Below are positions 17,670 to 45,679 of a stretch of 52,235 nucleotides of DNA, piece by piece. Positions within the stretch are counted from its first letter, which is position 1. Every line of letters starts with the position of its first letter. The position numbers and the translations under genes were made by a program. This DNA is from a virus (lineage: Duplodnaviria > Caudoviricetes), in the IMG/VR virus record IMGVR_UViG_3300046003_002393, positions 1 to 52,235 of that record; one strand, written 5' to 3'. A model generated the notes under the pieces. It was not told where the DNA came from. It made no database searches and saw only the letters and a list, made by a program, of their open reading frames with translations.

Positions 17670-19487
17670 TCAAAGCAAGTCAGAAATAACATCTATCGTT
17701 TCCATCATCGCGATTCTTTCGCCCAATATCCGCATACAATTTACCGCCATACTGTTGCCCAAAGCCTTGTACCGCGCTGAGTTTGATGCACCAGGTATGT
17801 TGGTATAACCGTGGGTAAGGCTAAGATTTATTGCGTATGAATTGCCGTTGTGCATTTGCTCTGGAATGAATGAACTTATGACACTCACGACAAAGCAACA
17901 CAAGGTTTGAATGCTCTGTTCGTAACTCTGGAAATTTGACCCAACTTCCGATGTGATGAACTTCATGCAGTCGTTCTTTGTAGACATGAACTTTGTGGCA
18001 TCGCTGACAAGTTGCTCGATCTCTTGTCCAGATACGTCTACAGACTTGCTTCCATATCCGTGATGAGAAGAATTGTTGATGTTCTGTGGTAATGCCGCCC
18101 CTCCAACAATGGTGTTTGTCCCCAACAAGGTGTGCAGTCTTACATTTAATTGAACAAAATCGTCTAGTTGAATAGGCAGGCGACACCATTTTTGTTTGTC
18201 CGCAAGATTGACAGACAAGAGCAACTTTCCTTGATTGTGTATTTCCAGAGTTCGTGCCTCTAAATTTAGAAGCGCAGACACCTCCGCAAGTTCGGAAGTC
18301 TTGTGATTGCTTTGTCGTGAATTCACCTCCGCAAATGATGCAATTTTTTGTGATTCGCTTACTACGGCATTGCCAGCAACATTTGGCAACTTGGGACATT
18401 GCGTTTCCGCAAGCGCATTGGTTTTTTGATGGTCTGAGCATACGCGAAGTATAACAGTTTTCGTTACCTCAGGAAACCCCTGCAATCTTTCGCACTCAAG
18501 CGGAGTTAATCGGCGTACTCGCATTTGTGAGCAGACAGCCATTTGGTTATCACCAGGTTCTTTGCGAATAGTCCCTGTGTGCTCTTCGTAAGCAACCGCA
18601 TGAACATCCGTCTTGGTTAGCGTATAGGATGACCCTGTATCATCGTAGCCAGTGCCATTCCCGCCATTCTCAGGTGCGCGTCCGATTGTGTTTCCAGCTA
18701 AGGCATAAGTCGGTACAAACAGCGGTGCGCCCTCGTTGATATGCTGATTTTCCAATCCTTGTTTATCTCCGAAGTGTGCGTTTAACGTGCTTGCGATTTC
18801 AGCCGGCCATTTCTTCACTGGCAAGATATGTCCACAGGCTGCGTCTTGCGCTCCGATACTAACGCCAGTGCGCGCTCCAATTGTTCCGGCAAATTCTTGC
18901 CCCTTACTTCTGCTCGGCGGAGGATTCCCGCACAGGCTTTCGGAGTCAAAAAGAACTGCGGCTGCACTTCGCCAGTCTCCAAGACATCCGATAACGAACA
19001 CACGCCTTCGTCTTTGCGGGACGGCTCTAGGGTGCTCATGTGTTCTGCTGAATTGAGCATCAAGAACTCGGTAGGCGAACCCATAGCCGAGTTGCCCCAA
19101 CCCTCCAAGGAAGGTTCCAAAATCCCTTCCGCCGTTACTCGACAAGACCCCCGGTACGTTTTCCCAGACAATCCATTTCGGCTTATATCGATCAGCAATT
19201 GCGAGGTAGATGAGCATGAGGTTGCCACGCGGGTCATCCAATCCTTTTCGCAAACCTGCGACTGAGAATGATTGACAAGGGGTTCCGCCGACAAGAACAT
19301 TGATAGTTGCATCAGGCCACTCCTTAAATTTAGTCATGTCGCCTAGGTTCGGGACGCTTGGGTAGTGGTGCGCCAACACTTTGCAAGGAAAAGGTTCTAT
19401 CTCTGAAAACCCGATAGGGTTCCAACCAAGCGGATGCCAAGCGCATGTAGCTGCTTCGATTCCACTGCATACCGAAAGGTAATTCAC
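17670..19487 (-). CDS. DNA (cytosine-5) methyltransferase with a 219-aa in-frame insertion
   Basis: Motif I SVCSGIEA, IV GGTPCQSFS, VI WENVPG, VIII PQRRRRVF, IX RRLTPLECERLQGFPE, X RYKALGNSM; insertion lies between FPE and GYTNIPG. Confidence 0.92.
   Translation of the reverse strand: MNYLSVCSGIEAATCAWHPLGWNPIGFSEIEPFPCKVLAHHYPSVPNLGDMTKFKEWPDATINVLVGGTPCQSFSVAGLRKGLDDPRGNLMLIYLAIADRYKPKWIVWENVPGVLSSNGGRDFGTFLGGLGQLGYGFAYRVLDAQFSRTHEHPRAVPQRRRRVFVIGCLGDWRSAAAVLFDSESLCGNPPPSRSKGQEFAGTIGARTGVSIGAQDAACGHILPVKKWPAEIASTLNAHFGDKQGLENQHINEGAPLFVPTYALAGNTIGRAPENGGNGTGYDDTGSSYTLTKTDVHAVAYEEHTGTIRKEPGDNQMAVCSQMRVRRLTPLECERLQGFPEVTKTVILRVCSDHQKTNALAETQCPKLPNVAGNAVVSESQKIASFAEVNSRQSNHKTSELAEVSALLNLEARTLEIHNQGKLLLSVNLADKQKWCRLPIQLDDFVQLNVRLHTLLGTNTIVGGAALPQNINNSSHHGYGSKSVDVSGQEIEQLVSDATKFMSTKNDCMKFITSEVGSNFQSYEQSIQTLCCFVVSVISSFIPEQMHNGNSYAINLSLTHGYTNIPGASNSARYKALGNSMAVNCMRILGERIAMMETIDVISDLL
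17811..18467 (-). mobile_element. 657-bp in-frame insertion carrying an out-of-frame HNH gene
   Basis: Removal restores canonical LQGFPE|GYTNIPGASNSARYKALGNS; length is a multiple of 3; no stop in the host frame. Confidence 0.8.
17821..18441 (-). CDS. Zinc-finger HNH endonuclease nested in the methyltransferase (alternative frame)
   Basis: Multiple CxxC units; RDRATCQRC...EVHHIGSW...SNLVLLCRECHKFIH HNH motif. Confidence 0.88.
   Translation of the reverse strand: MLRPSKNQCACGNAMSQVAKCCWQCRSKRITKNCIICGGEFTTKQSQDFRTCGGVCASKFRGTNSGNTQSRKVALVCQSCGQTKMVSPAYSTRRFCSIKCKTAHLVGDKHHCWRGGITTEHQQFFSSRIWKQVCRRIWTRDRATCQRCHKVHVYKERLHEVHHIGSWVKFPELRTEHSNLVLLCRECHKFIHSRANAQRQFIRNKS
18815..19312 (-). CDS. 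Overprinted ORF resembling the M.EcoHK31I beta polypeptide
   Basis: TAAGGAG SD 7 nt before ATG; C-terminal CSLSDVLETG...FFLTPKACAGILRRAEVRGKNLP..LERAL; +1 frame inside the MTase. Confidence 0.72.
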   Translation of the reverse strand: MQLSMFLSAEPLVNHSQSQVCEKDWMTRVATSCSSTSQLLIDISRNGLSGKTYRGSCRVTAEGILEPSLEGWGNSAMGSPTEFLMLNSAEHMSTLEPSRKDEGVCSLSDVLETGEVQPQFFLTPKACAGILRRAEVRGKNLPEQLERALALVSERKTQPVDISCQ

Positions 19488-19678
19488 GGCAACCCCAATC
19501 TATCCCGGCACGGGGCACACGCTCCCCCTACCAACCTGAGCGAGTGCTCCTCGCAGTGGATACACTCACCCGCCACACCGACAGGTATCCGTGAAGCCTT
19601 CTCCCTGATCTCCGCGATGTGAGCCGCGTCGAAGAACTCCATCTTTTCGGAGGTCATGTCTATTTCATCGGCCATCAC
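19484..19678 (-). CDS. TraR/DksA-type C4 zinc-finger protein
   Basis: MADEID N-terminus; GECIHCEE...CAPCRD. Confidence 0.7.
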   Translation of the reverse strand: MMADEIDMTSEKMEFFDAAHIAEIREKASRIPVGVAGECIHCEEHSLRLVGGACAPCRDRLGLP

Positions 19679-19920
19679 ATTTTCCTTTCATAAGTATGCA
19701 GTTCACAGTGAGTCGCGATAGCCGCTGACATGCCGTTAGGTGAGTTAACCAGTATCTCCGATATCTGATCTTTATTGCAGAGCCAGTAGACGCTGGTTAC
19801 TTCGGGGTGAACTACCCGTCGATACTCCGTCGAGATTTCCCACGCCACACACACTACTGCAAGCCCAATTAACGCCCCGACCAATACCAGCGGGTCAGGT
19901 ATCCGTTCCAAAAATTTCAT
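19675..19920 (-). CDS. Hypothetical membrane protein
   Basis: One TM helix; ATGA overlaps on both sides. Confidence 0.55.
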   Translation of the reverse strand: MKFLERIPDPLVLVGALIGLAVVCVAWEISTEYRRVVHPEVTSVYWLCNKDQISEILVNSPNGMSAAIATHCELHTYERKM

Positions 19921-21332
19921 GCTTGCCCCCTTTTCATTGCTTCCAATAAACAGTCCATGATTCCCTTTTTGTTATCTATTCTCTCCAGCACCAACTCGTC
20001 TATCGTACCCCGTGCGATGATGTTGTGGACGAACACCGAACGCTTGTACCCAGATTGCTCTTGTCTCACAGGGCCAATCCGTTCGAGAATCTGCAATCTA
20101 TTCTCCAGATTCCAGTCATGTGAGAAGAACACGAGTGTTCGCCCACCGTGCTGCAGGTTCAGCCCATGCCCGGCCGAGGCGGGATGCGCGAACAATACAG
20201 GTATCTTGCATTCGTTCCAATCCTTCTGGGTCTGCGGGTCGGCATCCAGCACGCGCCCTTGGGGAAAAGCCTTGAGTAACCTTACGAGGTCGCTCTTGAA
20301 GTGGTATGCCACCAACACCGGTTCGCCCATCGCTTCTTCGATAATCTCTTCGAGCGCCAGAATCTTGACATCGTGAACCTCCTTCCAGTCTTTAGCTTTA
20401 GGGTGAAAGTCGTTGTCAGCATCCGGGTCGAGGTACACCGCGCCGCTGGCGATCTGCAGTAACTTCTGTGTCTTGCTGGCCGCGTTGTGCGCTTCGACCT
20501 GGCGCTCACCCAACTTGATGAACATTTCCTTCTCCATCTCCCGGTACGTCTTGCGCGCCTTCGGTGGGAGGTCGATGTAGATGTTGTTCACGATCGGGTC
20601 TTCCAAGTCGAACCAATCCTTCATGTCGATGGTCAGGCACACATCCCTCAACCTCTCCTGAATCTCGGCTTGCGCGTGCGGTAGCGGAATCAGTGGCCCC
20701 TCTCCGTACTCCGGTGGGCGGAACCAGCGTTGCTTGAAGGCTTCGTAGCTCCTGCCCAGACGCTCCCCCGCATCCACGAACCACAACTGGCCCCACAGGT
20801 CGAGTAGCCCGTTCGGTGATGGCGTTCCGGTGAGGAGGTCGATCTTCTTGATCTTGGTGTGTGCTATCCTGCCCAACGCTTGCGCCCGAACGCCTCCCTG
20901 CTTCAAGCGGAACGACTTTAGTTTAGTGCTCTCGTCGATGATGACGTGCTTGAACGGCCAGCGGTCGCCGTAATAGTCGATAAGCCACACCAGATTCTCG
21001 AAGTTGATCGTGTACACGCTGGCGTCGTACTTCAACGCTCGCCGGCGCTTATCCTCATCGCCCATGATGGGCATGACGGTTATCTGGCTGAGGTGCGACC
21101 ACTTCTTCGCCTCTTCAGGCCACGTTGTAACCGCCACGCGCTTCGGCGCTACGACCAGAACGGGACTGTCCTCGCCAGCGAGAAAGCGGATATCTATGGC
21201 AGTGTATGTCGATACCGTCTTGCCTGAACCCATACCTGACCAGGTACACCCTCGGTCGATAGCGAGTTGGTGGTTCACGATCATGCCTTGGTACTCCCTT
21301 GGGGTGTAGACTGTGCGGATGGAGGGATTCAC
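19917..21332 (-). CDS. SNF2-family (SF2) helicase
   Basis: PREYQ, MGSGKT (Walker A), IIDES (Walker B), LTGTP, AGHGLNLQ, QILERIG. Confidence 0.93.
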   Translation of the reverse strand: MNPSIRTVYTPREYQGMIVNHQLAIDRGCTWSGMGSGKTVSTYTAIDIRFLAGEDSPVLVVAPKRVAVTTWPEEAKKWSHLSQITVMPIMGDEDKRRRALKYDASVYTINFENLVWLIDYYGDRWPFKHVIIDESTKLKSFRLKQGGVRAQALGRIAHTKIKKIDLLTGTPSPNGLLDLWGQLWFVDAGERLGRSYEAFKQRWFRPPEYGEGPLIPLPHAQAEIQERLRDVCLTIDMKDWFDLEDPIVNNIYIDLPPKARKTYREMEKEMFIKLGERQVEAHNAASKTQKLLQIASGAVYLDPDADNDFHPKAKDWKEVHDVKILALEEIIEEAMGEPVLVAYHFKSDLVRLLKAFPQGRVLDADPQTQKDWNECKIPVLFAHPASAGHGLNLQHGGRTLVFFSHDWNLENRLQILERIGPVRQEQSGYKRSVFVHNIIARGTIDELVLERIDNKKGIMDCLLEAMKRGQA

Positions 21333-21568
21333 CTCGGCACTCCCTGAAACAACTTCTTGCGAAGCTGAACCACGATGTCGCTCTTCAAGGTATTGTGGAT
21401 AAAGTCCCGCAGAACAGGATACATCGCGTCGTGCTCCTCCGCTGGCATGAACCTCGAAGCGGTAAACGCCTCGCCTTCTACCTCAACGGTTGTCGTGGAC
21501 AGGTAGCCGGTGATCACCCCATCGGCACTCTTGATCGGGGAAAACTTTATGTCCTCAACTATTCTCAT
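21329..21568 (-). CDS. Hypothetical protein
   Basis: 79 aa, translationally coupled to both neighbours. Confidence 0.6.
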   Translation of the reverse strand: MRIVEDIKFSPIKSADGVITGYLSTTTVEVEGEAFTASRFMPAEEHDAMYPVLRDFIHNTLKSDIVVQLRKKLFQGVPR

Positions 21569-21912
21569 TTCGCTATCCTCTCAAAGAAAATATCTACTTC
21601 CTCATAGGTGCTCAAGACGTGAACAGGCACCCCCTTTTTCTCCAGCTTCAACGCTTCCCGCGATTGCGATGGGTTGGGCTTTGCACCTGGTCGCTTCAGT
21701 TCAGCGAAGTGCGCACCGTTCAGCGCGACGAACCAATCGGGAGCGTCCTTGCGGCGATACCACTCACACTTGCGAACCTCGGCGCCATAGGACTTAGCGA
21801 TTTTCAAGAAGTAATCCTTGATGTCACGCTCCTTGACGGGCTTGGCTTTCTTAATCGCTTTGCGTTCGAGGTATTCGGCGTCTACTTGTTCTATTGAAAT
21901 TTTAGTTGGCAT
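21565..21912 (-). CDS. VRR-NUC domain nuclease
   Basis: ERDI...APDW...FAELKRPGAKPNPSQ PD-(D/E)xK pattern; located between polymerase and helicase. Confidence 0.88.
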   Translation of the reverse strand: MPTKISIEQVDAEYLERKAIKKAKPVKERDIKDYFLKIAKSYGAEVRKCEWYRRKDAPDWFVALNGAHFAELKRPGAKPNPSQSREALKLEKKGVPVHVLSTYEEVDIFFERIAK

Positions 21913-21917
21913 TTTCT

Positions 21918-23978
21918 CTACCCCTTCCTGTATCGATAAGTTTCAAATCCCGCTGCTGCCAGCGGCATCCCTTGTGCCCATGGCGGATTCGTTGCAAGCA
22001 ATTCGCTCAGGCGTCCTACGTTAAAATCTTCAGTGTCTGGTACTTCCGTGATTAACTCATCATGCACCTCCAAGACGATCTCGTACCCCGCATTCTCAAC
22101 CGGAATGAACGAACTCTTGAACACGTCTCGGGCGAATGCTTGTGTCACATTTTCGACGAGCCGCCCGCTATATGTGCTAATCCTGCACCACTTGCGGCTG
22201 AACTGATTCACCCCTTCGTAACTGATCTTACCGTGGTCATCTAACCGTGGGGAGGGATAGCAAAGTGCGCGACCTGAAGGCAGGACTATCCTCAACCATT
22301 CACCTGTGCGCCTGACTCTGACCTTGCGGCACAAGAAGGTGACTTGTGGTTCGCGAATCGCGGCGATCACCGCGTCTTGCACTTCACCCCAGAACGCTAC
22401 GATATTCGGATGCTGTAACCGCCACATCCGTTTAAGCGAGTCGCAAGCGCAGAACACGTCCTTGCTCAGGCCGTAGGTGGCGCGCTTGGTCTTATGACAC
22501 CAGTGCCAGAACTTGATGGCTTCGTTCCATACCTCTTCGGGAATACCGGGGCGGGCCATCGTGGACATGTGATCAAGGTCTATCCGGTATGTGGCCGCCC
22601 CGGTTAGGTAAGCGCCTACACCGCCTTCGTAACCCAGCATCAACTCCATGACCTTACCGATCTGACGCTTGTCGCCAGTGGCCTCTTCAGCGGGAACCTT
22701 GAACGCTTTACCATAAGCGACCTTGTATAAGTCTTCCCCGATTCCCGCATCGAAATCGCGGAACGCTTGTAGCTTCCACTCTTCGCCAGCGAGGTAGGCC
22801 AGCACACGACCTTCAATGTTGGACAAGTCCGATACGACCAGTTTCTTACCCGGTGGTGCGACTATGCAACCGCGAATCGCGTTGGAGGTGAGCGACATCA
22901 CGTTCTCATAGATCAGGTCAGCGCAGTCTAGCTTCATCGCTTCAACACCCGCTTCTATCGCGGCGTTCTTCATGTTCGGTCGCGGAAGATTCTGAGGTTG
23001 AAATGTTCTCCCGGCGCTGCGACCCGTTCTGCCCGCCCCGCAGAACTGGATACTCCCCCGCATTCTGCCATCGGTAGTCGCTTTGATCAGTTTCTTGTAC
23101 TTGCTGGTACTGATAGAGCACACCTGTAACCTGACCTTGAGGAGTTCCTTCAATGCGTCAGGCATGTCGGGGTCATCGAGCAACCGCGTAACGGTGTCCT
23201 TGGTGAGGTCAGGCAGAGCGAAGCCATAACTCTCTAGGATGTGATCTAACAGCACATCGCGCTGCGTGGTGCTCTCTACCTTCCCTTCGGTCATATCGAA
23301 GGTCTTAGCCTTCAGGAAAGCCTGTTCCAAGCCAACGGCGCGGAGGGCGGCGTGCGCCAGTTCGAGATCGACTGCAAACCCACGGTCGTTGATCTTCTGG
23401 TCGAGGTGCCATAGCGCCAGTTCGTCACCCTTGTAGTTCCAAGTGGGCATCTTCTTGGCAATCGCCCTCATCGCTTCGGTATCGTTAATCGCGTACTCGA
23501 TAAACTTAGCCCAGTCCTCGGGGTGTGTTAACCGCGTCGCCCTGCGAACCTTGACGTTCTTTCCTCGGGGCTTGCAGAACAGGTGGATGAGTCGAGTACC
23601 GTCCTTGTGCTTCGCGAGGTCGTCTCCGATCTTGAATATGCCGCATAGCTTGTCGAGACCGCCAGGGAGTGAGAGCGTGAACGCTTGAACCATCGTGTCG
23701 CGCCAGCGCGGGATATCGATGTCGAGGTTCATGGCGTACTTGAGTACGTTACGGTCGAACATGGAGTTGTGGGCAGTGACAAGCTGTTCAGGATCGTTCA
23801 GCGCGTACTTCAGATCGGGAATATCGTATGGGTGTTCGTCGTTCGTTAAGTCGAGACCGATAACAGGGCCATCGTCGATTGCTGATGTCCAGATCATCGC
23901 TTCGCAGTTCGACGTGTAGGCGTAAGTGCCATTTGCTATCGGCACCTCGCTGAATGTTTCGGTATCGAGCCAGATCAT
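21918..23978 (-). CDS. Family A DNA polymerase with 3'-5' exonuclease (APSE/BPP-1-like)
   Basis: LDTET, AHNSMFD, YAINDT exonuclease motifs; TGR, QPQNLPRP, DLSNIEGR (motif A), RQIGKVMELMLGY (B), VHDE (C). Confidence 0.95.
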   Translation of the reverse strand: MIWLDTETFSEVPIANGTYAYTSNCEAMIWTSAIDDGPVIGLDLTNDEHPYDIPDLKYALNDPEQLVTAHNSMFDRNVLKYAMNLDIDIPRWRDTMVQAFTLSLPGGLDKLCGIFKIGDDLAKHKDGTRLIHLFCKPRGKNVKVRRATRLTHPEDWAKFIEYAINDTEAMRAIAKKMPTWNYKGDELALWHLDQKINDRGFAVDLELAHAALRAVGLEQAFLKAKTFDMTEGKVESTTQRDVLLDHILESYGFALPDLTKDTVTRLLDDPDMPDALKELLKVRLQVCSISTSKYKKLIKATTDGRMRGSIQFCGAGRTGRSAGRTFQPQNLPRPNMKNAAIEAGVEAMKLDCADLIYENVMSLTSNAIRGCIVAPPGKKLVVSDLSNIEGRVLAYLAGEEWKLQAFRDFDAGIGEDLYKVAYGKAFKVPAEEATGDKRQIGKVMELMLGYEGGVGAYLTGAATYRIDLDHMSTMARPGIPEEVWNEAIKFWHWCHKTKRATYGLSKDVFCACDSLKRMWRLQHPNIVAFWGEVQDAVIAAIREPQVTFLCRKVRVRRTGEWLRIVLPSGRALCYPSPRLDDHGKISYEGVNQFSRKWCRISTYSGRLVENVTQAFARDVFKSSFIPVENAGYEIVLEVHDELITEVPDTEDFNVGRLSELLATNPPWAQGMPLAAAGFETYRYRKG

Positions 23979-23979
23979 G

Positions 23980-27144: not shown

Positions 27145-27612
27145 TCATAATTTTACCCACTCCCTTCCTGATTTCTCCCAAATACCTCGGGCATCGAGGT
27201 TGATGTACTCTTCGTTAAACACTATCCGCTGACAACTTGTATTGAGCAGCAACTTCACACACGTCATGCACGGGCTGGTCGTGGTGTAACACGTCTCGAT
27301 CTCCCATACGTCTCGGCATTGCAGTAAAGCGTTCTGCTCTGCGTGGATCGCGTGGCACCCATCGAGATTCGTCCCCGTCAGAGATTGCGCTCCGGGACAG
27401 GCGTGAGGGTAATCTGTCTCACGGAAGGGATACAAAGGTTCCGATTCATTACAGTGCTTCGCCCCCGCATACACCCCGTTATATCCCGTAGCGAGGATGT
27501 GACCGCGTTTGTTTACGAGGACGCACCCAACACTACGTCGGAGGCACGTTGAACGGCCAGCGGTCACTTGAGCGAGTTGCATTCCCCACTCATCTTTAGT
27601 CGGTCTGGCCAT
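27145..27612 (-). CDS. dCMP deaminase (ComEB-like)
   Basis: RSTCLRRSVGCVLV, ATGYNG, HAEQNA, PCMTC zinc-deaminase motifs. Confidence 0.92.
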   Translation of the reverse strand: MARPTKDEWGMQLAQVTAGRSTCLRRSVGCVLVNKRGHILATGYNGVYAGAKHCNESEPLYPFRETDYPHACPGAQSLTGTNLDGCHAIHAEQNALLQCRDVWEIETCYTTTSPCMTCVKLLLNTSCQRIVFNEEYINLDARGIWEKSGREWVKL

Positions 27613-27994
27613 GTCCACCTCTAATGTTAATCACTTCATGCGGTTTTCTTCCCAAGTTAAAGAACAGGGAGTCCAAGTCCAACTTCGGTCTGCTGTTAAG
27701 TCCCTGCTCGTCTAGCTTGGAGGCACTGGACACACTAAGGGGAAATATCCGCGCTTGGTACACCCCGTAGTTCTTACCGGTACGTTTCGCACAGCGTTCG
27801 CCCACCTTCTTGAGAATGCCCATCTTGAGCAAGAACACCAGGCGCACCGCTATTCTGTTACGGTCTTTTGACGTGTCCTTCCCGAGGAACTCCTCGAAGT
27901 CCCAGTGAGTGAACTCCTTATCCAGCCCGTAGTTGCTTTCAATCTTTGCGTATACCTTGGAGAGGATACCTCCTCGTGGGTTACAGTTAGCCAT
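27596..27994 (-). CDS. Hypothetical protein (possibly winged-helix)
   Basis: 132 aa basic protein, overlaps both neighbours. Confidence 0.55.
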   Translation of the reverse strand: MANCNPRGGILSKVYAKIESNYGLDKEFTHWDFEEFLGKDTSKDRNRIAVRLVFLLKMGILKKVGERCAKRTGKNYGVYQARIFPLSVSSASKLDEQGLNSRPKLDLDSLFFNLGRKPHEVINIRGGHGQTD

Positions 27995-28472
27995 CGAATC
28001 TCTCCAACATCAATTCCAACACGGCGAGGGCGTTCCACGCGACCTGTGCTTGGTGCATGAGTCCTGTTGCGGAGTCCGTCTGCGCGTCGGTACGTTGAGC
28101 GAACCAGTGTCTCATCATCGCGTTGTCGTACCTCTCTACGCTGTTCGGGACGTGTTTCCAGCCATCGGGTGAATACTTCTCCGCGCCGTAGGTGCCGACC
28201 TTGCCGACCTCTTCCAGCGCCTTCGCGAAGCCCCCCAAGACCAACCCAAGGCGGTTTTTACCAGCGTCTAACTTAGCCCCTGGAGAATGCGGATCGGTAC
28301 CGTGGGGGTCTGTCTCAGCGACGTTCTTATGCTTCACGGTTACAAAATCTACCCCCGGTATGGCGCGTCTCCTCTCGGCGGGAGCTGAGAAAGCCTCTAA
28401 CTCCTGCTGAGTCATTGGGCGGATTTTCTTCGCGGTATCCATCTCTAAATCTATCTGCTTGTATATCGACAT
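27987..28472 (-). CDS. dATP/dGTP diphosphohydrolase domain protein (DUF5664-like)
   Basis: GAKLDAGK.R..L, V.TYGAEKY...W, RY.NAMMRH, DSATGLMHQAQVAWNAL. Confidence 0.85.
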   Translation of the reverse strand: MSIYKQIDLEMDTAKKIRPMTQQELEAFSAPAERRRAIPGVDFVTVKHKNVAETDPHGTDPHSPGAKLDAGKNRLGLVLGGFAKALEEVGKVGTYGAEKYSPDGWKHVPNSVERYDNAMMRHWFAQRTDAQTDSATGLMHQAQVAWNALAVLELMLERFDG

Positions 28473-35729: not shown

Positions 35730-36179
35730 TCTATTATCTATGGTCGCTGTCTCATGTATGCAACACCAAGGCGCGAATAGTGTCTCATTTATGCAATATT
35801 GTCGCCATATTGAGACAGTATTCGCGCCTCGCTATGGTCGGCGCGTTGTTCGCGCCCCATCCTGGCCGCCTTGCGGCCCCACCGGTTCGCGCTTCGCGCG
35901 TCAACATGGCCGCTTCGCGGCCCGGCGCGTTGCACGCGCCCCCCATAAGTCTTTGCTCTTAGGGCTGAGCGAAGCGAAGACATTTAAGAGTCTTCTAACC
36001 ATAAGACCAATAGGAAGAGGGGGGAGGGGTTTGGTTTTGGGTTCGGTTTTGTTGGATAAGGACGCGTCCGAAAAATTAAAATCTAAAACCGAATCGCGAT
36101 ACCCGAAGCCCAAGTATACTTCCCCCGCGTGTTGTGGTTCGTCAACCCTGATCCGCTAAAAAAATTAAAGGAAAATCCA

Positions 36180-37310
36180 ATGGTTAACCCCCAAAGCGCA
36201 CCCTCCCCAAACGAATCGTGGCTCGAGGACCTCATCGGCGCACCGCCTACCCACACGGCCACTAACCCCGTCCCGATCACTCCCATCGCGACTCAGATCG
36301 CCCCTCAGGTCACTCCCACGAGTAACTATGAGCAGGATAGGTACGAGCGAAGGTTGCTGCGACAACTCGGCAGACCTTCGGCACCGGTCTCGGATGCGCC
36401 TTTGCCTACGCTATCCGGCCACGAGTCTCCTTCTCCGTACCTCGCGCCCGAGTTGGAGGTGTTGCAGTCGCAGTTGAAGGAGCAGATACGTAAGGTTAAG
36501 CTCACGGAGCGGAAGGCTGAACGGTTGGTCAAGCGCGCCAGAGCGGTTATTAGCCCTCCCAAGCCCGAGAAGCATGACTCCGCAGAGTTCGGGGTTCCTG
36601 TGCCGCCCCCGTCTCCCGATACTCGCACCCCTGACCCCCTCTCGGCGCTGTCAGATGGTCAGAAGTTGCTTGCTAAGGCGGCGGAAGGGTTCCCAGGCGA
36701 TGGGCGAACCCCGATGGCCACTGAGGTAAGGGCGCTTGACCCACGGGAGAGGGTGTTCGTGGGTAATCTGTTCAACGGGATGATGGCTGATGAGGCTGCG
36801 GAGAAGGCGGGATACCCTCACCGGCCTGACTTCGCGATGCGGTTGGTCGCTAAACCTCACATTAGGCAGGCATTGGATTGGATGCAGCAGGAATATCTGA
36901 GGTCGATAGGTGCCACGCTCACCAACGCGGTGACTCAGATGACTCACATCGCGTTCCTCGACCCGCGCAAGGTGGTGAACATGGAGACTGGAGCGCCGAT
37001 ACCGCTGCACAAGCTCGATGCGGCAACGGCAGCAGCGTTAGAGGCGGTCGAGATTACTGAGACGGAGTTCAACGGAGTGTCTAAGGTGACTAAGACGAAG
37101 TATAAGTTCAACTCGAAGTTGAAGGCTTTGCAGCAACTCGGAGAGCACTTGGGGTTGTTCAATCAGGTAGTGAAGGTAGAGCATACAGGGGCAAACGGGG
37201 GGCCGATACAGATGGAGATGAGCCAGACGGAGATCGCACGGCGCATGTTGTTCGTGCTTCGGCAGCAGGGGGAGGTAATTGATGTTGACGTAAGTGCTCA
37301 GGTGGAGTAA
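36180..37310 (+). CDS. terS: Terminase small subunit with long Pro-rich N-terminal extension
   Basis: LDPRERVFV...AAEKAGY...RLVAKPHIRQAL, IAFLDPRK, KLKALQQLGEHLGLF, VEHTGANGGPIQ; AAGGA SD before ATG 36180. Confidence 0.82.
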   Translation: MVNPQSAPSPNESWLEDLIGAPPTHTATNPVPITPIATQIAPQVTPTSNYEQDRYERRLLRQLGRPSAPVSDAPLPTLSGHESPSPYLAPELEVLQSQLKEQIRKVKLTERKAERLVKRARAVISPPKPEKHDSAEFGVPVPPPSPDTRTPDPLSALSDGQKLLAKAAEGFPGDGRTPMATEVRALDPRERVFVGNLFNGMMADEAAEKAGYPHRPDFAMRLVAKPHIRQALDWMQQEYLRSIGATLTNAVTQMTHIAFLDPRKVVNMETGAPIPLHKLDAATAAALEAVEITETEFNGVSKVTKTKYKFNSKLKALQQLGEHLGLFNQVVKVEHTGANGGPIQMEMSQTEIARRMLFVLRQQGEVIDVDVSAQVE

Positions 37311-39078: not shown

Positions 39079-39540
39079 ATGGCAACAACATTCAACTTAT
39101 TTGACAACTGGCGCAAGACGGTGGCAACTCCCTCCCGCGCAGCAGCGGTAGCGGGTACGCTGAAGCTGGCGATATTCAAGGCTATGACCATCGGCACCAC
39201 GGAGCAAGGTGCGTGGGACTTCTATGATGACCTCACACCTGGTACGAATCAGGTATCAGGCACCAACTACACCGATTTGGGTAACGCCTGTGCCTCCCCG
39301 ACGTGGACAGGGCCGACAGCGGGGGTGTTGACGTTTGACGCCAGCGACCCGACTACGTGGAGCCAGCACGCCTCGGGGTTCTCGAACGGTAGACGTGCGA
39401 TACTGTTCTACGACACCGGAGTCGCAGCCACATCGACATTAGTAGGCTTCTCTGACGACTTCGGTGCCGACCTTGGTAACGTGGCTTCTGACTTCAGCGT
39501 AGCTTTTAACGCCAGCGGAATCTACACAAGTAGCAGGTAA
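39079..39540 (+). CDS. Putative virion structural protein
   Basis: LKLAIF, VSGTNYT.G, TFDASDPTTW, AILFYDT, DFG.D...FSVAFNASGI. Confidence 0.6.
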   Translation: MATTFNLFDNWRKTVATPSRAAAVAGTLKLAIFKAMTIGTTEQGAWDFYDDLTPGTNQVSGTNYTDLGNACASPTWTGPTAGVLTFDASDPTTWSQHASGFSNGRRAILFYDTGVAATSTLVGFSDDFGADLGNVASDFSVAFNASGIYTSSR

Positions 39541-39599
39541 GAGTACCTTTAAGGGTCGTGTTCGCAAGGGTGCGACCATTTTTTAAGAGGAGGTCTGCC

Positions 39600-39854
39600 G
39601 TGGCGGGATTAGAGGCAATACAAGCATGGAATAACGAGTTCATGCGGTTAAACGGTATTCCACCAAGTAGGATGGCGAATAACGAGTCCATGATGGATTA
39701 CTTCAAGACGATAAGTAGGAATGGCGGGTACAAGCTCCCTTCACCTCTTAACGCTGCGCCAGCACCAACAGTTCCAACCCCAATAAAACCCCCTTCAGTG
39801 GCTACCGCCCTCGCCGCAGCGCGAGAAGTGGTTCGACTACTCGAAGCTATGTAA
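39600..39854 (+). CDS. Hypothetical protein
   Basis: GAGGAGG SD 6 nt before GTG 39600. Confidence 0.5.
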   Translation: MAGLEAIQAWNNEFMRLNGIPPSRMANNESMMDYFKTISRNGGYKLPSPLNAAPAPTVPTPIKPPSVATALAAAREVVRLLEAM

Positions 39855-39866
39855 AGGAGAAACGAC

Positions 39867-40352
39867 ATGCGCTTCACACCAGCACAACAAGCAGCAATCA
39901 AGACATATGTATTGGCTGACCCAGTTCTTGCGCCGCTTACTTCGGGAGACGGTACCGACTATGGGTTCGTAGCGAGTACACTATCCGGCTATCCCATATC
40001 TCCCGTCTTAGCATGGTCAACGAATGTCCCATCGGTTGTCTCTGACGACGCTCCGAGCTACGCTACCTTCGACAGTATCGTCGCGGGTAAGCGTGACTCA
40101 TGGGGATTCTTCCTTGCTAATCCAAGGGACTTTACCCGTAAAAAAGTTCGGGACTGGGTAGTAGACGTTTGGGGTGCTGCTACTGCTGCAAGTAATGCTG
40201 AGGCGATACTCAAGGCGGGTACCGAGAACATGCGGGTGATCGAGGTCGTTCTCGGTGGCGTGGATAAAACCACAGGTACAGTAACAGCCAAAACACGAAG
40301 CTACGTCGGGGGTATCGACCTCGCGGAAGTAGCTGGACTCTTTAATGTATGA
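39867..40352 (+). CDS. Hypothetical phage protein
   Basis: AAGGAG SD; MRFTPAQQAAIKTYVLADP N-terminus. Confidence 0.65.
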   Translation: MRFTPAQQAAIKTYVLADPVLAPLTSGDGTDYGFVASTLSGYPISPVLAWSTNVPSVVSDDAPSYATFDSIVAGKRDSWGFFLANPRDFTRKKVRDWVVDVWGAATAASNAEAILKAGTENMRVIEVVLGGVDKTTGTVTAKTRSYVGGIDLAEVAGLFNV

Positions 40353-40996
40353 GTGACGACATCAGGCTGGTGATCGCCATACCGACCGCCGGAACGGTCA
40401 AGATGGGCTTCGCGTATTCGTTGGCGGGTCTCATTGGCTACCTAGCTGCGCACGCTGTGCCCTCACGCCCCGAAGCGGCTGTTGAGGTGCAGATGGACGT
40501 TGTTGAGTCGAGCGTAATTCACACGAACCGTGAGAAACTGGTACGCCGGGCGATAGATTCTGGGCAGACGCACCTCATGTTTATCGACGATGATATGGTG
40601 TTCGAGCCGAACATCGTTGATGTGATGCTTGGGCGCAGACAGCCAGTGGTGTGCACCAACTACCTCATCAAGACGGATGCGTGTGACTCGTTCGTGGCTG
40701 TTGGGCTGAACGATAAACGTGTCAACACGCTGGAGAAATCCACAGGATTGAAGCCCATAGCCTACTCGGGTTTTGGGGTAAGCGTGTTTGAGATAGAGGT
40801 GTTCAAGAATACCCCCCAACCGTGGTTCTTACCGAAGTTCATACCGGAAGACAACGGGTACACAACAGAGGATAATCCGTTCTATGAACGGGTAAGAAAC
40901 GCGGGATATAAAGTGTTCCTAGACCAAGACGCCAGCAAGCTAGTGTCCCATCTAGGCGGATCATCATGGAACTGGAGGGAGTTCAGAAATGGCTGA
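40349..40996 (+). CDS. Glycosyltransferase, GT-A fold (GT2-like)
   Basis: LVIAIPT, NREKLVRRA, HLMFIDDDMVF (DxD), GFGVSVF...VF....PWF, TEDNPF, GYKVFLD...VSH. Confidence 0.85.
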   Translation: MSDDIRLVIAIPTAGTVKMGFAYSLAGLIGYLAAHAVPSRPEAAVEVQMDVVESSVIHTNREKLVRRAIDSGQTHLMFIDDDMVFEPNIVDVMLGRRQPVVCTNYLIKTDACDSFVAVGLNDKRVNTLEKSTGLKPIAYSGFGVSVFEIEVFKNTPQPWFLPKFIPEDNGYTTEDNPFYERVRNAGYKVFLDQDASKLVSHLGGSSWNWREFRNG

Positions 40997-41459
40997 CGCA
41001 ACTACGAAAGTAACAACATCAACACAAGTAACGCACATCGGAAGCGGTGCGTCTATGGCCGCTGCGACACTTAGCGGCTCGGCAGACGTGTCCACCGCGC
41101 TCTCGTTCACGGGGAACCTGAACAGGTATCCAAGGGCAGACCTGGTTCTGAAGGTCTCGCCCACCGCGTCCATCGCGTCCACATCGACGAATATCCTCTT
41201 GTACCGCAGGGATATGAACATCGACAGCACAACGGATGAACCCGTACCGGGGGTGAGCAACAAGCAGCACTACATGGGCGCTTTCCAGCTTTCCGCAGCA
41301 ACAACAGCGTCCACCACTCATAACATACAACTTACCGATATTCCACTACCAGGTAGCGGAGATTGCGAGTTCTACATTGAGAACGCTCTAGGGGTGAACA
41401 TCCCGATCGGGTGGACGCTAAAGGTGACTCCCAAGTCCGACATCGGCGCAACATCGTAA
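40989..41459 (+). CDS. Putative virion structural protein
   Basis: 156 aa Ser/Thr/Ala-rich beta protein; WTLKVTPK. Confidence 0.55.
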   Translation: MADATTKVTTSTQVTHIGSGASMAAATLSGSADVSTALSFTGNLNRYPRADLVLKVSPTASIASTSTNILLYRRDMNIDSTTDEPVPGVSNKQHYMGAFQLSAATTASTTHNIQLTDIPLPGSGDCEFYIENALGVNIPIGWTLKVTPKSDIGATS

Positions 41460-41462
41460 GAC

Positions 41463-43106
41463 ATGATAGTCCGTCGTATCCCGTGGACTAGCCAGCCTCA
41501 GATAGCGGTTCCGATAGATTCATCGAACACGCTGTTTGACGTGTCTAAGATAACTGCTGTCGTCAATCCTGGGTTTGGAACGTACAAGAGGGACGCTCGA
41601 ACAGGTAAGTTATATACTGTATCTACCAACCCCGCCCAAGCGATGAATGCTTTAGGTAAGGGTATTAGATGGGTAGGAGGTACTAATGACTATATACAAT
41701 TAGATGCTGACGCAGATAATGTATTAGATACTGTTAGCTGTTCTATGCTGATAGCTACTGTCAGGAATGCTACTAATAATGGTAATGATATATCTTATGG
41801 ATATGAAGATGGAGGTACTGGTAATAGAGTTCAAGCACACTTTCCTCTAGATACTACTGCTACTATATATTGGGATTTTGGTAATGGTACTGGTGGTGTT
41901 GGTGGAGGTAGAGTTACTGCAAATCCTGGGGCTGCTACATGGGCTATTGGAAGAATTAATATATGGGGTTTTTATGCTGGTAGTAGAGGTAGAGAAATAT
42001 GGTTAAATGGAAGGTTAATAGCGTCTGATATAACAGCTACTAAAATACGTAGTGCTACTACTCAAGGATTTAGAATAGGAAGTGGTGCATCTAATTCTAG
42101 CAGCGCATCTGCACCTTATCACTCTGATAATCTATTTGTATTATCTAAAGAAGGTTGGAGCCAAGCTGCTTTTGCAGGATTAACTGCTAATCCTTGGCGG
42201 ATATTTGAGCCTAAACAGGTTACAGTCTTCGCGGCACCTTACCCCCCAACGGTCATAGGCCTTACCGCCCCGACTCTCGGACTCACCCCCCAAGATATCG
42301 CGCAAACGAGGACGCAAAATCTCACCGCCGCTGCGCTTACTTTAACACCGAACAGTGTAACCGCGCTATGGACTATCCGCCCCGCGACTGCAGATTTCGC
42401 CTTTAACCGAGAAGTTTTCCAGATCGCATCAGCGAATAACTTAGGGGTTTCGACTTGTGACTTCACGGCTTTAGAGATAAGTGCTCAATCGGTAGCATCA
42501 CTAGGCACTGCTGCGATGGACTTCGTAGCCAACGACGTGCAGTTAGCGATTACCAATAACCTAGATGTTGGCAACTTAATCCTCGCCGGTCAGGATACTC
42601 AGCAAGTCGCCAGCACGACATTGGGCACCGCGACGATGGACTTCGTGGGTAAAAACATCACTGAGATACAGGTTGTTGCTCTTGGTTCTGCCGCGCTGAA
42701 CTTTACCGCGCAGACTTCCAACCCAGTCGCGGTAGTTACGCTCTCTACCGCTGCGATGAATATGGTTGTGCTCGATATCAGACCGGAGAACTCACCGCTT
42801 GGAACGGTGCAGGTGATGACGATATCCGCGATGGACTTCGCGGTTAACCCTATCAGCAACACTGCCAGCACGACGCTCTCCGCTGCGGCGATGAACGATG
42901 TGGCTTACGAATTGCACCTCGTATCGAGCAACGTGCTTACCGCGCCTACGTTTGATCTAGCGCCTCAACCGCTGACCGTTACCCAAGCCGCCGTAGTAGT
43001 GGCACTTGTTCCCGCGACGTTCGACTTCGTACCGGGCGCGATACAAGCGGCAGGCACGTCATCGGTGGGCGACAGACGACGCATTATGATGGGAGTGGGC
43101 AAGTAA
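41463..43106 (+). CDS. Fibre-like protein: lectin/LamG-like N-domain plus ~20-aa repeat shaft
   Basis: WTSQPQ..VPID N-terminus; EIWLNG, FRIGS, NPWRIF; repeats of LGTAAMDFVA type. Confidence 0.6.
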   Translation: MIVRRIPWTSQPQIAVPIDSSNTLFDVSKITAVVNPGFGTYKRDARTGKLYTVSTNPAQAMNALGKGIRWVGGTNDYIQLDADADNVLDTVSCSMLIATVRNATNNGNDISYGYEDGGTGNRVQAHFPLDTTATIYWDFGNGTGGVGGGRVTANPGAATWAIGRINIWGFYAGSRGREIWLNGRLIASDITATKIRSATTQGFRIGSGASNSSSASAPYHSDNLFVLSKEGWSQAAFAGLTANPWRIFEPKQVTVFAAPYPPTVIGLTAPTLGLTPQDIAQTRTQNLTAAALTLTPNSVTALWTIRPATADFAFNREVFQIASANNLGVSTCDFTALEISAQSVASLGTAAMDFVANDVQLAITNNLDVGNLILAGQDTQQVASTTLGTATMDFVGKNITEIQVVALGSAALNFTAQTSNPVAVVTLSTAAMNMVVLDIRPENSPLGTVQVMTISAMDFAVNPISNTASTTLSAAAMNDVAYELHLVSSNVLTAPTFDLAPQPLTVTQAAVVVALVPATFDFVPGAIQAAGTSSVGDRRRIMMGVGK

Positions 43107-45679
43107 TGCGTGTTGAGGACATGCTGAAGATACTAGCCCAAACACCGGGAGGGGGTCGCGATGAAGTATCGCGACTCGCGCTTGAGGCTACCGCACATAT
43201 GAAGTGGGTTCCGAACCCCGGGCCGCAAACCGAGGCTTACTTTTCACCGGCTGACGAGATATTTTTCGGTGGGCAAGCAGGCGGGGGAAAATCGGATTTA
43301 GAAATCGGACTCGCTATTAACGAACACGATCGGTCACTGCTCCTCCGCAGAACGAATAAAGAAGCCGATGGGCTGGCCGACCGTATGACCGAGATTCTCG
43401 GCAACCGCGATGGGTACAACTCCCAGAAGGGAACATGGAGGATACCGCACAATGGAAACATCGTGGAGATCGGTGGGTGCCAGCTAGAAACGGATAAGCA
43501 ACGGTATAAGGGGAACCCGCATAGTTTGATCTGTGTGGGTAGAGAAACGCCAGTGCTTATGGCAGATGGGTCTTATAAGGCAATCTCCGCTATAAACGTA
43601 GGGGAGTCGGTGACTACACTTGAAGGCCCCCGGCGGGTACTGAAATCTTTCCCCGTCGCGGCAAAACCTTCGGTGGAGTTGCGCGTTCAACTACCGTGCG
43701 GAGCCGTTCATCGCCAGGTGCAATCGACGACCCATAAAGTTCTTTCGCATAAGGAGTGGGTTGCCCCCGGTACACAAGGCGTTTCCCGTGGCCACCTGTC
43801 GGCCCTTGCTTCCAAGCAATGTCATACTCAGCGAGTACCACGCGCCAAACGATCATCCCTACTTGGGTTAGTCGAGCGAGCTCTCTGTACGACAAGTCGG
43901 TTGGGGCGAAGTACCTTGCCACCTCTGCAAGTTGGTTACGTGTCGTCGGGCAAGAAGGGTCAATTGGACGGGTGCGCATATAAGGCGCGAGAACTTCATC
44001 AAAGTGTAGTCGTAAGGTCTGGTGCGCGACGCCTAAATGCTTGGCAGCAGCTTTTATGTTGCCTGTCGTCTTCAACGCTTCTGAGACAATCGAGGAGGTT
44101 AAATGCACCCTCTTTCCATCGTTCATCTTCTTGGCATGATAACTACGATGCGCTGAAAAAGTCATTACTTCTAAGTTCTCAGGTCTGTTATCAGTCCTTA
44201 TCTCATTTTTGTGGTGAACACATTCCTTCTCTGAGGACTTCGTACTCCACACCAAAGGGCGCCCTATCATATCCTCTCCCACAAGACGGTGTTGGAATAC
44301 CCAACCCCACATATTCGCCTCGCGATGAAAAGGATGGAATTCTAAAACGTAACCACCCATCAAGCACGTATGTCCACCCTTATACGAAGGAAATACGTCA
44401 AACGGAGTGCGTGCTTTCTTTAGCTTCATGGTCAGCGGTTCCTATAGGCGATATTGAGTTGTTCGACATCGAGGTTGAAGAAGTAAACCATTTTATCACA
44501 AAAGGCGGGATAGTCAATAAGAACTGTTTCGATGAAGTGAGCGATTTCACCGAATCGCAATACGTTTTTATCAATGCGTGGAACCGCTCCGCGAACCCCA
44601 AACAGCGGTGCCGTATCGTCGCTGCAGGGAACCCCCCGACACGTCCTGAAGGTCTGTGGGTTGTGCGCCGATGGGCAGCATGGCTCGATCCGAAGTACGC
44701 GAATCCCGCTAGTCCGGGAGAGTTACGCTGGTACACCACGGGCGAAGACGGTAAGGAAATCGAGGTCGACGGGATAGGTCCACACCGTATCTATGGCGAA
44801 CAGGTGTTCGCAAGGTCGCGCACCTTCATCCCCTCCCAGTTATCCGACAATCCCGATCTCTCAGCCACGAACTACGCGGCGTCCTTAGCGGGTCTGCCGG
44901 AAGAACTACGGCTAGCTTACCGCGATGGCGACTTCAGTGTGGGTCTCCGCGATGAGCCGTGGCAGATAATCCCCTCGGCATGGGTTGTGGAAGCCCAAGC
45001 CCGTTGGACGAAGAATCCCCCCTACGGCGTGCCGATGTGCTGTATCGGAGTGGACGTAGCGCAAGGAGGTAACGATAACACCGTGCTCGCGATACGACAT
45101 GATGGTTGGTTCGCTCCGTTGATCGTTGTCCCCGGAGCCGAGACCAAGGATGGCCCAAGCGTGGCGGGTAAGGTAGTAGCGAACCGCCGGGACGAGTGCC
45201 GCGTTGTGGTTGACATCGGCGGCGGGTGGGGTGGTGAAGCCTATGCACACATGAAGGCCAACGGCATAGACGCGGTGGGCTACATGGGCATCAAGGCGTC
45301 CACGAGGCGCACGCGGGACAGGCAGTTGGCGTTCACCAATGTCCGTACCGAAGCGTACTGGCGGTTCCGTGAAGCCCTCGATCCTGCTCAACCTGGCGGG
45401 TCGAACATCAAGCTCCCGAGCGACCCCGAGGTGGTATCCGATCTCTGCGCGGCGATGTACGAAGTGACCTCACGGGGCATCAAGCTGGAAAGCAAAGAAG
45501 ATGTCTGCAAGAAGTTAAGCCGATCACCCGATAAAGGCGATGCTATTGTCATGGCGTGGTGGGACGGGTATAAGGTAGAACAGCTTCAAGACGGGGATTG
45601 GAAGGGAGTTAAAGGTGGTAGAATGACTCCTAAAGTGATTATGGGACGTGCAGCGGCGCGAGCGAACAAGAGAAGATGA
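43106..45679 (+). CDS. terL: Terminase large subunit containing a 331-aa intein
   Basis: PNPGPQ, GGQAGGGKS (Walker A), spliced Walker B SLI|CFDE, AGNPP, GVDVAQGGND, SPDKGDA nuclease motifs. Confidence 0.93.
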   Translation: MRVEDMLKILAQTPGGGRDEVSRLALEATAHMKWVPNPGPQTEAYFSPADEIFFGGQAGGGKSDLEIGLAINEHDRSLLLRRTNKEADGLADRMTEILGNRDGYNSQKGTWRIPHNGNIVEIGGCQLETDKQRYKGNPHSLICVGRETPVLMADGSYKAISAINVGESVTTLEGPRRVLKSFPVAAKPSVELRVQLPCGAVHRQVQSTTHKVLSHKEWVAPGTQGVSRGHLSALASKQCHTQRVPRAKRSSLLGLVERALCTTSRLGRSTLPPLQVGYVSSGKKGQLDGCAYKARELHQSVVVRSGARRLNAWQQLLCCLSSSTLLRQSRRLNAPSFHRSSSWHDNYDALKKSLLLSSQVCYQSLSHFCGEHIPSLRTSYSTPKGALSYPLPQDGVGIPNPTYSPRDEKDGILKRNHPSSTYVHPYTKEIRQTECVLSLASWSAVPIGDIELFDIEVEEVNHFITKGGIVNKNCFDEVSDFTESQYVFINAWNRSANPKQRCRIVAAGNPPTRPEGLWVVRRWAAWLDPKYANPASPGELRWYTTGEDGKEIEVDGIGPHRIYGEQVFARSRTFIPSQLSDNPDLSATNYAASLAGLPEELRLAYRDGDFSVGLRDEPWQIIPSAWVVEAQARWTKNPPYGVPMCCIGVDVAQGGNDNTVLAIRHDGWFAPLIVVPGAETKDGPSVAGKVVANRRDECRVVVDIGGGWGGEAYAHMKANGIDAVGYMGIKASTRRTRDRQLAFTNVRTEAYWRFREALDPAQPGGSNIKLPSDPEVVSDLCAAMYEVTSRGIKLESKEDVCKKLSRSPDKGDAIVMAWWDGYKVEQLQDGDWKGVKGGRMTPKVIMGRAAARANKRR
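43532..44524 (+). mobile_element. Intein (Hint domain) in the TerL Walker B motif
   Basis: Block A CVGRETPVLMADG; block B STTHKV; blocks F/G LFDIEVEEVNHFITKGGIVNKN; +1 extein Cys; removal gives GNPHSLICFDEVSDF. Confidence 0.9.
43614..44429 (-). CDS. HNH homing endonuclease encoded antisense within the intein
   Basis: GYV, QHRLV...IGRPL...ECVHHKNEIRTDNRPENLEVM...H...H (HNH_3-like); HTH NIKAAAKHLGVAHQTLR; AGGA SD ~10 nt before ATG. Confidence 0.87.
   Translation of the reverse strand: MKLKKARTPFDVFPSYKGGHTCLMGGYVLEFHPFHREANMWGWVFQHRLVGEDMIGRPLVWSTKSSEKECVHHKNEIRTDNRPENLEVMTFSAHRSYHAKKMNDGKRVHLTSSIVSEALKTTGNIKAAAKHLGVAHQTLRLHFDEVLAPYMRTRPIDPSCPTTRNQLAEVARYFAPTDLSYRELARLTQVGMIVWRVVLAEYDIAWKQGPTGGHGKRLVYRGQPTPYAKELYGSSIAPGDERLRTVVERATPPKVLPRRGKISVPAGGLQV

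Follow-up and report, generated by a model that had tools for sequence, protein, structure and literature searches.

How does a phage genome accommodate two unrelated HNH endonuclease genes inside two of its conserved genes while both host reading frames stay open from end to end, and is this arrangement a way of life for such nucleases or a coincidence? The window analyzed here is IMG/VR virus record IMGVR_UViG_3300046003_002393, which is a whole assembly in a single contig of 52,235 bases and represents a tailed-phage genome. In it a C5 cytosine DNA methyltransferase (methylase) gene and the large terminase (TerL) gene each contain a long in-frame insert. An initial annotation of this DNA proposed that two unrelated HNH types sit at conserved motifs of these genes, both of them outside the host frame and both leaving it open, and that they exemplify a general strategy. 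The description has held up as follows: the two HNH proteins have no mutual similarity (BLASTP E 0.5); both lie at conserved motifs, one in the -1 frame of the methylase and one antisense to the terminase; and open host frames are found at 114 of 116 loci for the methylase and at 35 of 37 for the terminase (below). The outer positions it gave, 17811 and 44524, also fit the elements, since 44524 belongs to the last codon of the terminase intein and 17811 is 3 nucleotides (nt) in from 17808, where the methylase insert has its 3' edge. We believe, with a probability of roughly 0.8, that both elements are selfish HNH homing-endonuclease genes that persist by way of a host open reading frame (ORF) kept free of stop codons, a state that may be called "ORF-transparent overprinting."

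The methylase gene (17670..19487, minus strand) encodes 605 amino acids (aa) including its insert. Pfam DNA_methylase matches residues 1-340 (E 2.7e-43), and PHROG methyltransferase families match as well, one of them at residues 570-598. Alignment with five insert-free relatives delimits an insert of 660 nt (17808..18467, minus strand; host residues V341-H560) whose junctions are exact, QGFPE| on one side and |GYTN on the other; by the usual numbering of C5 methylases we take this site to lie between motifs IX (QGFPE) and X (GNS). Hidden in the insert, in the -1 (third) frame of the methylase, is a gene for a zinc-finger HNH endonuclease of 206 aa (17821..18441, minus strand; Pfam HNH PF01844, E 2.2e-9; PHROG HNH families to 2.8e-15). 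Its ATG is at insert nt 27, after a 26 nt leader, and its TAG stop codon (17821-17823) falls 10 nt short of the insert end, which leaves only 36 nt of the insert outside the HNH ORF. Fifteen homologues on record are about 206 aa long and start at the same Met, and several Cys pairs together with H162, H163, N179, H188 and H192 are invariant in the 16 sequences (the window's and these 15). Read in the host frame the insert has no Pfam match, and its ends (V...H followed by G) are unlike those of inteins (C/S/T...N followed by C/S/T). No Rfam match was found in the whole window at the gathering score, or in 17650-18650 at E values up to 1. Because of this lack of an Rfam match and the non-intein ends in the host frame, we conclude that the methylase insert is probably removed by nothing. 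In an AlphaFold2 model of the 605-aa protein, residues 343-556 have pLDDT values (predicted local distance difference test) below 50 and form some low-confidence helices.

The terminase gene (43106..45679, plus strand) encodes an 857-aa precursor that matches the PHROG terminase large subunit on both sides of its insert (E 1.9e-22 and 2e-20). This insert is a class-1 intein of 331 aa (43532..44524, plus strand) that runs from Cys1 to Asn331, ends in VNKN, and is followed by the +1 Cys codon (44525-44527) and then FDE. Its limits were set by alignment with the empty site of a related viral terL locus (L002; TerL identity 86% in the C-part and 76% in the N-part) that joins residues 144 and 474 directly, SLI|AFDE. 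In terms of terminase motifs, the intein stands directly before the Walker B acidic pair. The 13 intein sequences compared all share C1, H68, N329, K330 and N331, and in each of them Cys occupies the +1 position. Cys1, a block B of the form (T/S)xxH (S-T-T-H around H68 in the window) and a C-terminal Asn followed by C/S/T, which we take to be the defining motifs of inteins, are all present. In an AlphaFold2 model, residues 1-83 and 275-331 are all-beta with pLDDT values of about 85-97, and this core aligns with the gp41-1 intein (6riz_A; Z 16.2, rmsd 2.1, 120/127 aligned) and the Mtu RecA intein (2imz_A; Z 15.9) in VIA-align; by their titles all 29 chains with Z of at least 8 are intein, BIL, hedgehog-type Hint or Vint domains. 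We infer that the terminase intein is competent to splice. Between the two lobes, residues 84-274 (191 aa; 43781..44353, plus strand) form a linker with pLDDT values below 50 and no secondary structure, and this linker is the antisense reading of an HNH gene. That gene (43614..44429, minus strand) encodes a 271-aa endonuclease of the HNH_3 plus helix-turn-helix (HTH) type (Pfam HNH_3, PF13392, E 3e-7; PHROG HNH families to 1.6e-15); its HTH matches are weak and below the Pfam cut-offs. Residues H72, H73, N81, N85, H94 and H98 are invariant in 13 sequences, those of the window and 12 relatives with 28-54% identity.

Are these two open host frames coincidental, as the initial annotation allowed that they might be? 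Both layouts are more than chance. When the antisense HNH gene was shuffled synonymously, the TerL frame was stop-free in 0 of 5000 shuffles and contained 9.3 stops on average. The same treatment of the methylase HNH gene left the methylase frame stop-free in 286 of 5000 shuffles with a mean of 2.0 stops, and gave 13 stops in the other shifted frame. Ordinary genes of the window genome (n=21), read in the same frame relations, contain a mean of 14.8 stops per 272 codons in the terminase-type antisense relation (0 of 604 windows stop-free) and 10.9 stops per 207 codons in the methylase-type relation (0 of 704 windows stop-free). The difference between the shuffles and the ordinary genes indicates that the amino acid sequence of the methylase HNH itself, beyond its codon choice, suits an open methylase frame.

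Single-sequence scans of viral contigs with either HNH returned nothing, and profile scans were needed. With the methylase HNH they gave 80 metagenome loci (the best 80 of 333 confirmed), 9 genome loci and 80 viral loci (the best 80 of 88 confirmed), and the genome-scan matches include Massilia, Sphingomonas and Vannielia records and several metagenome-assembled genomes. Plus-strand matches of at least 165 aa make up a redundant set of 116 loci with 73 distinct full-length coding sequences. In 114 of them the methylase frame has no stop anywhere along the HNH and stands in the same relation to it, mostly with methylase N- and C-parts in the flanks, and the two exceptions are the most distant members (33% and 28% identity). 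Ten further methylase proteins of 421-915 aa carry the insert in the host frame with 37-83% identity. A DNA search of 50,697 phage records with the methylase matched 23 records, none of them touching the insert.

Two observations on individual copies of the methylase insert may be recorded here. One methylase protein (P0003; 426 aa, from a 1737-nt contig) is a near-identical variant that lacks 33 host-frame residues within the insert and part of the methylase body; by our own mapping the gap falls on the HNH catalytic motif while the host frame is still open, and it looks like a decaying copy of the nuclease. In one wastewater run (X16), contigs over 17706-18643 cover the insert with few differences (e.g., 7 in 266 nt), and the flanking methylase body is uncovered or joined otherwise (joint 18525 to 18909), a pattern that is compatible with a similar insert in a different methylase.

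A third family of hidden HNH genes came to light in the same kind of host gene. In Mycobacterium phage Thibault (L099, JN201525.1 60673-65724) the annotated HNH protein gp103, with HTH repeats and an HNH_3-like domain, is encoded inside a 503-aa open frame that starts as a methylase (2666-4174, minus strand). HNH genes with 41-46% identity to gp103 occupy the -1 frame of methylase ORFs in four loci (L157, 904-1485; L158, 662-1276; L196 and L197, 1106-1723, with identical matches), where they lie upstream of the HNH gene at motifs IX/X in the same ORFs; thus, some methylases hold two hidden nucleases. Two further methylase proteins (P0010 and P0011) have a matching host-frame segment after motif VIII.

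The terminase element has a comparable spread. Among 18 related viral terL loci, 13 contain both the intein and an HNH homologue (33-57% identity), and in all 13 both frames are open in the same phase, though TerL identity drops to 26-29%. The remaining five are the empty locus L002, two C-terminal fragments (L001 and L009) and two loci with other inserts (L004 and L010). The last two (3001-6111; 59% identity in the C-part) match about 1037 codons with a different insert arrangement, and their inserts could be different inteins located elsewhere in the gene. A profile built from the 13 antisense HNH proteins found 42 loci, some of them on contigs that overlap the 18-locus set; the five weakest were dropped, and the 37 with a match of at least 70 aa were examined. 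A frame of 522-1243 aa antisense to the HNH gene is open across the whole match, in the same phase, in 35 of these 37. The terL DNA search of the 50,697 phage records gave no match. Further examples, which the initial annotation's idea of a general strategy called for, thus exist in the form of the embedded relatives in 114 of 116 and 35 of 37 loci and of the gp103-like family in four loci.

On which of the two overlapping frames does selection act? In the methylase family, column entropy at HNH codon positions 1/2/3 is 1.08/0.96/1.46 bits, and variability is highest at the host's second codon position. Amino acid sequences read in the HNH frame have a mean pairwise identity of 0.49, against 0.27 for the methylase frame and 0.26 for the third frame, which is closed. 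The methylase-frame value is about that of the control, which argues that the host-frame peptide is not conserved as a protein and that only its openness is kept. In the terminase family, the corresponding entropies for the antisense HNH gene are 1.17/0.99/1.58, and the HNH frame has an amino acid identity of 0.38; the value for the TerL frame, 0.19, does not exceed those of the control antisense frames, 0.21 and 0.31. True double constraint is short: by our own mapping, the intein's H282-P283-Y284 (44375-44383), all invariant, face Y16-G18-G19 of the HNH on the other strand, which are nearly so. These alignments point to selection on the nuclease frames, the host frame being kept only stop-free.

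Both elements are distributed patchily at fixed sites. The terL of locus L002, 86% identical in TerL, has an empty site, whereas 13 more distant terL loci are filled. None of the 80 nearest viral methylase loci, which are the best 80 among 593 confirmed stretches, has the methylase insert, whereas in the 114 loci, whose methylases are more varied, it occupies the same GFPx| site. Identity to the window's HNH does not track methylase identity; for example, one locus (L100) has 60% identity in the HNH and 24% in the methylase, and another (L142) has 47% and 73%, respectively. This patchy distribution, together with membership in HNH endonuclease families, suggests that both HNH proteins are homing endonucleases.

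If these genes lie inside the coding sequences of other genes, how might they be expressed? An extended -10-like box, TG-T-TATACT (18448..18456, minus strand), ends 6 nt before the ATG (18441) of the methylase HNH gene, and its position is conserved in a set of 71 distinct junctions anchored on GFPx|. In 53 of the 71 the sequence TANNNT is found at exactly insert nt 15-20, with a mean of 4.1 of 6 matches to TATAAT; at any other insert offset it occurs at most 22 times and usually 0-2 times. The start codon is at insert nt 27-29 in 63 of the 71 junctions (ATG in 58 and GTG in 5), and Shine-Dalgarno (SD)-like words are present in only 16. Since the box ends 6 nt before the AUG, the transcript is predicted to begin at the AUG itself, and we infer that the methylase HNH gene is transcribed as a leaderless mRNA from a box inside the insert. 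The antisense HNH gene has candidate signals of a different kind, namely a promoter-like site, TTGACT-16-TAAAAT preceded by TG (44490..44517, minus strand), and an SD-like AGGA (44440-44443, minus strand) 10 nt before its ATG. The promoter-like site is in codons of intein blocks F/G: reverse-complementing the Val-Asn codons of VNKN gives its -35 element, and the His-Phe/Tyr-Ile codons of block F give its -10 element in the same way. Counted from the intein end, the best promoter-like match falls at this same offset in 11 of the 13 loci, with scores of 9-12 of 12.

Put together, the two elements might work as follows. In the terminase, a class-1 mini-intein just before Walker B would carry, on the opposite strand of its dispensable middle, an HNH_3 plus HTH gene of the free-standing type. 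This gene would use its own promoter in the codons of blocks F/G and its own SD sequence, while ribosomes translating TerL would read on through the antisense sequence and make of it an unstructured linker of 191 aa; the Hint lobes would then splice out all 331 aa and restore TerL. The separately made nuclease would cut intein-less terL alleles, and repair would copy the intein and the HNH gene into them. In the methylase, an HNH gene flanked by only 26 nt on its 5' side and 10 nt on its 3' side would have been placed between motifs IX and X in the -1 frame and would never be removed, the methylase being made with a poorly structured 220-aa loop that it tolerates. Its HNH gene would be transcribed from the conserved -10 box in the insert into a leaderless mRNA that starts at the AUG.

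Other explanations of each element must be weighed against this one. Phage group I introns often carry HNH genes, and the methylase insert could be such an intron (or another self-splicing intron) with an HNH ORF, in which case the open host frame would be incidental; the conserved site and the existence of relatives with empty sites would suit it. It would have to fold from just 26 nt plus 10 nt outside the ORF, the Rfam searches were negative at the gathering score and at E up to 1, and a spliced intron has no need of the host frame that is open in 114 of 116 loci. The authors who described the ShiLan domain, a mycobacteriophage methylase insert of 202 aa that has no stops, encodes a zinc-finger HNH of 195 aa in the third frame and bears no signs of an intein or intron, report a likewise negative result (Arsenault, Gosselin and Gogarten, Genes 2025, PMC11855218). 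We therefore consider an intron very improbable. The always open host frame and the predicted full-length product of 605 aa, with some low-confidence helices in its model, could instead be taken to mean that the insert is an unrecognised protein-splicing or other functional domain of the host frame, to which the HNH frame is secondary. This, too, hardly deserves credence, and slightly less than an intron does: host-frame identity (0.27) equals that of the control frame (0.26), the variability peak is at the host's second codon position, and the insert has no Pfam match, ends in V...H then G, and is modeled with pLDDT values below 50. The -1 frame of the HNH gene, which is shared with the Thibault gp103-like inserts and resembles the 'third frame' of ShiLan, and the A-rich 26-nt leader might alternatively be read as signs of a -1 ribosomal frameshift in that leader that yields a methylase-HNH fusion nuclease. 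A conserved slippery heptamer is absent; the start codon is fixed in 63 of 71 junctions, the box is 6 nt upstream in 53 of 71, and the homologues share the start Met, all of which make a fusion by frameshifting very doubtful.

Could the antisense HNH protein serve the phage in DNA packaging, like the HNH proteins that assist terminases at cos sites? HNH genes beside terminase genes are common in phages (PMC3592412), which gives this idea some footing, but the antisense HNH is found solely together with the intein, a phage with an 86% identical TerL lacks both, and the HNH_3 plus HTH make-up fits PHROG HNH endonuclease families. A packaging accessory is accordingly unlikely, although we would dismiss it a little less readily than the explanations above. 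That one or both host genes are dead and their open frames mere relics is the least credible proposal and has almost no probability. Terminase is essential for a tailed phage, and even in relatives whose identity has fallen to 26-50% the frames have stayed open. Nothing specific speaks for dead genes, although the methylase may be dispensable, as is argued for ShiLan (PMC11855218).

Selfish overprinted nucleases thus remain the best account of both elements, but several points tell against it. The intein has a penultimate Lys where His is usual, and in block B a Ser where Thr is usually found. As -10 elements the boxes were identified by their agreement with a consensus, none of the runs recorded as RNA contains this stretch, and conservation of the intein promoter could partly be a by-product of conserved amino acids. 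The methylase frame is open in 5.7% of the shuffles, so the single-genome case is modest and the argument for this element rests on its family. The AlphaFold2 model of the methylase is poor overall (mean pLDDT 47, with the variable region at residues 181-325 also below 50), and the harmlessness of the insert loop therefore cannot be shown from it. Lastly, the contigs of four runs (three lake-water DNA runs and one wastewater run labelled RNA-Seq that is probably DNA) contain no insert-less methylase allele and no joint that skips 17808-18467, and so give no sign of current mobility within this population. To a wider proposal we would give about even odds, namely that such genes follow a third way of life besides introns and in-frame inteins. 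They would be obligately overprinted homing endonucleases that are never free-standing, with the host frame held open by selection on codon choice and amino acid sequence and with their signals placed in host coding sequence (the leaderless -10 box and the F/G-codon promoter). The methylase would carry a 220-aa junk loop with no splicing, and the class would be common in environmental phages and routinely mis-annotated.

The rest of the genome gives the setting. Its gene content by Pfam and PHROG includes a T7-type portal, a capsid protein, small and large terminases, a family-A DNA polymerase, a primase-helicase, a sliding clamp, a dCMP deaminase and the C5 methylase. At least 90% of the sampled words of 17600-19600 are present in 15 lake-water metagenome runs. 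A Pfam search of 91 further ORFs of at least 100 aa, nested ORFs included, found no other nuclease nested within another gene. The small-terminase-like gene (Terminase_2, E 1.7e-12; 36129-37310, plus strand) is about 5.8 kb upstream of terL (43106, plus strand), with several unannotated ORFs between them. The dCMP deaminase gene lies near the gene for a protein that contains the dATP/dGTP diphosphohydrolase N-terminal domain (PF18909, E 5e-24; 27145-28472, minus strand); the deaminase, this protein and the C5 methylase together hint at altered nucleotide pools or modified DNA. A 2676-aa ORF (6326-14356, plus strand) has no Pfam match at E up to 1e-4, and the same is true of neighboring ORFs of 889 and 938 aa.

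What do these elements mean for the annotation of phage genomes? When a conserved phage gene contains a long in-frame insert that seems "domain-less," this insert can turn out to be an entire selfish gene that is read in a different frame or from the opposite strand, and annotation that ends at the longest ORF loses such genes. The initial annotation's statement that standard gene callers miss both nucleases is half right, since one of the two is on record: in a collection of 15 billion proteins the exact 206-aa methylase HNH is absent, whereas the 271-aa antisense HNH is present from NCBI, Logan and ENA, with a 248-aa form from JGI; both host proteins are there as well. Its inference of a class of overprinted homing endonucleases is supported by the above findings. 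The class is under-recognised, as it had proposed, but not unrecognised, since the principle is already in print (PMC11855218; bioRxiv 10.1101/2025.01.02.630785; bioRxiv 10.64898/2026.09.14.751524). For the intein and homing-endonuclease field the present results are therefore a confirmation and an extension and not a new principle; they add the size of the two families, evidence as to which frame selection acts on, and two candidate mechanisms of expression. Members of the two families hardly ever stand free (embedded in 114 of 116 and in 35 of 37 loci), and the families therefore offer plentiful natural material for studying how a pair of overlapping frames stays open.

How, then, do the two elements compare with known systems? 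The methylase element represents a family of the ShiLan design that is environmental, does not belong to actinophages and occupies another site in the methylase. Like ShiLan as described (PMC11855218), it is a stop-free methylase insert of about 200 aa, shows no signs of an intein or intron, and is filled nearly completely by a zinc-finger HNH gene of about 195-206 aa in the third frame, which starts a few nt into the insert (18 in ShiLan and 26 here) and stops a few nt before its end. It differs in its site, which in ShiLan is described as N|T/S where uninvaded genes have P (PMC11855218) and here is QGFPE|...H|GYTN, and in belonging to a large, environmental family. The relation of the methylase HNH to that of ShiLan was judged without the ShiLan sequence, from a tblastn search of the 50,697 phage records with the methylase HNH and an actinobacterial relative; the matches were all below 60% identity, and Mycobacterium phages accounted for 0 of 49 records. 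The ShiLan authors propose leaderless initiation, in the part of their paper available to us without a conserved -10 box at leaderless distance such as is found here (PMC11855218); this box offers a testable answer to their open question of how the hidden HNH genes are expressed.

The terminase element is an intein of the antisense-nuclease kind whose nuclease is an HNH. One preprint (bioRxiv 10.1101/2025.01.02.630785) describes inteins with antisense and out-of-frame nucleases and credits the anti-sense LAGLIDADG type to Gorbalenya 1998 and Gogarten 2002, and the out-of-frame nuclease of a dnaX intein is treated in another (bioRxiv 10.64898/2026.09.14.751524). Like the inteins of these preprints, some of which are in large terminase genes, the one studied here has an intact splicing domain, a middle that is unstructured in the intein frame, and an overlapping, separate nuclease ORF. 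Its nuclease is HNH_3 plus HTH, unlike the anti-sense LAGLIDADG or VSR-like types, and in the accessible part of the first preprint HNH is listed only as an in-frame type (bioRxiv 10.1101/2025.01.02.630785); its insertion point, directly before Walker B, also sets it apart from the preprint inteins. No description of an antisense HNH in an intein was found in the literature searched, and the supplements of the preprints may list one. With the canonical mini-inteins gp41-1 (6riz) and the Mtu RecA splicing domain (2imz) it shares the Hint fold, Cys1, a C-terminal Asn and a +1 Cys; unlike them it has a 191-aa disordered linker in place of a short loop or an in-frame nuclease, and a penultimate Lys instead of His. 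Finally, it resembles the fractured genes with split inteins, as far as these are described by Dassa et al. (NAR 2009, PMC2677866), in that a nuclease gene of the free-standing type is tied to an intein without being fused to it in frame, but unlike those genes its host gene is unsplit and runs as one ORF through the antisense strand of the nuclease gene.

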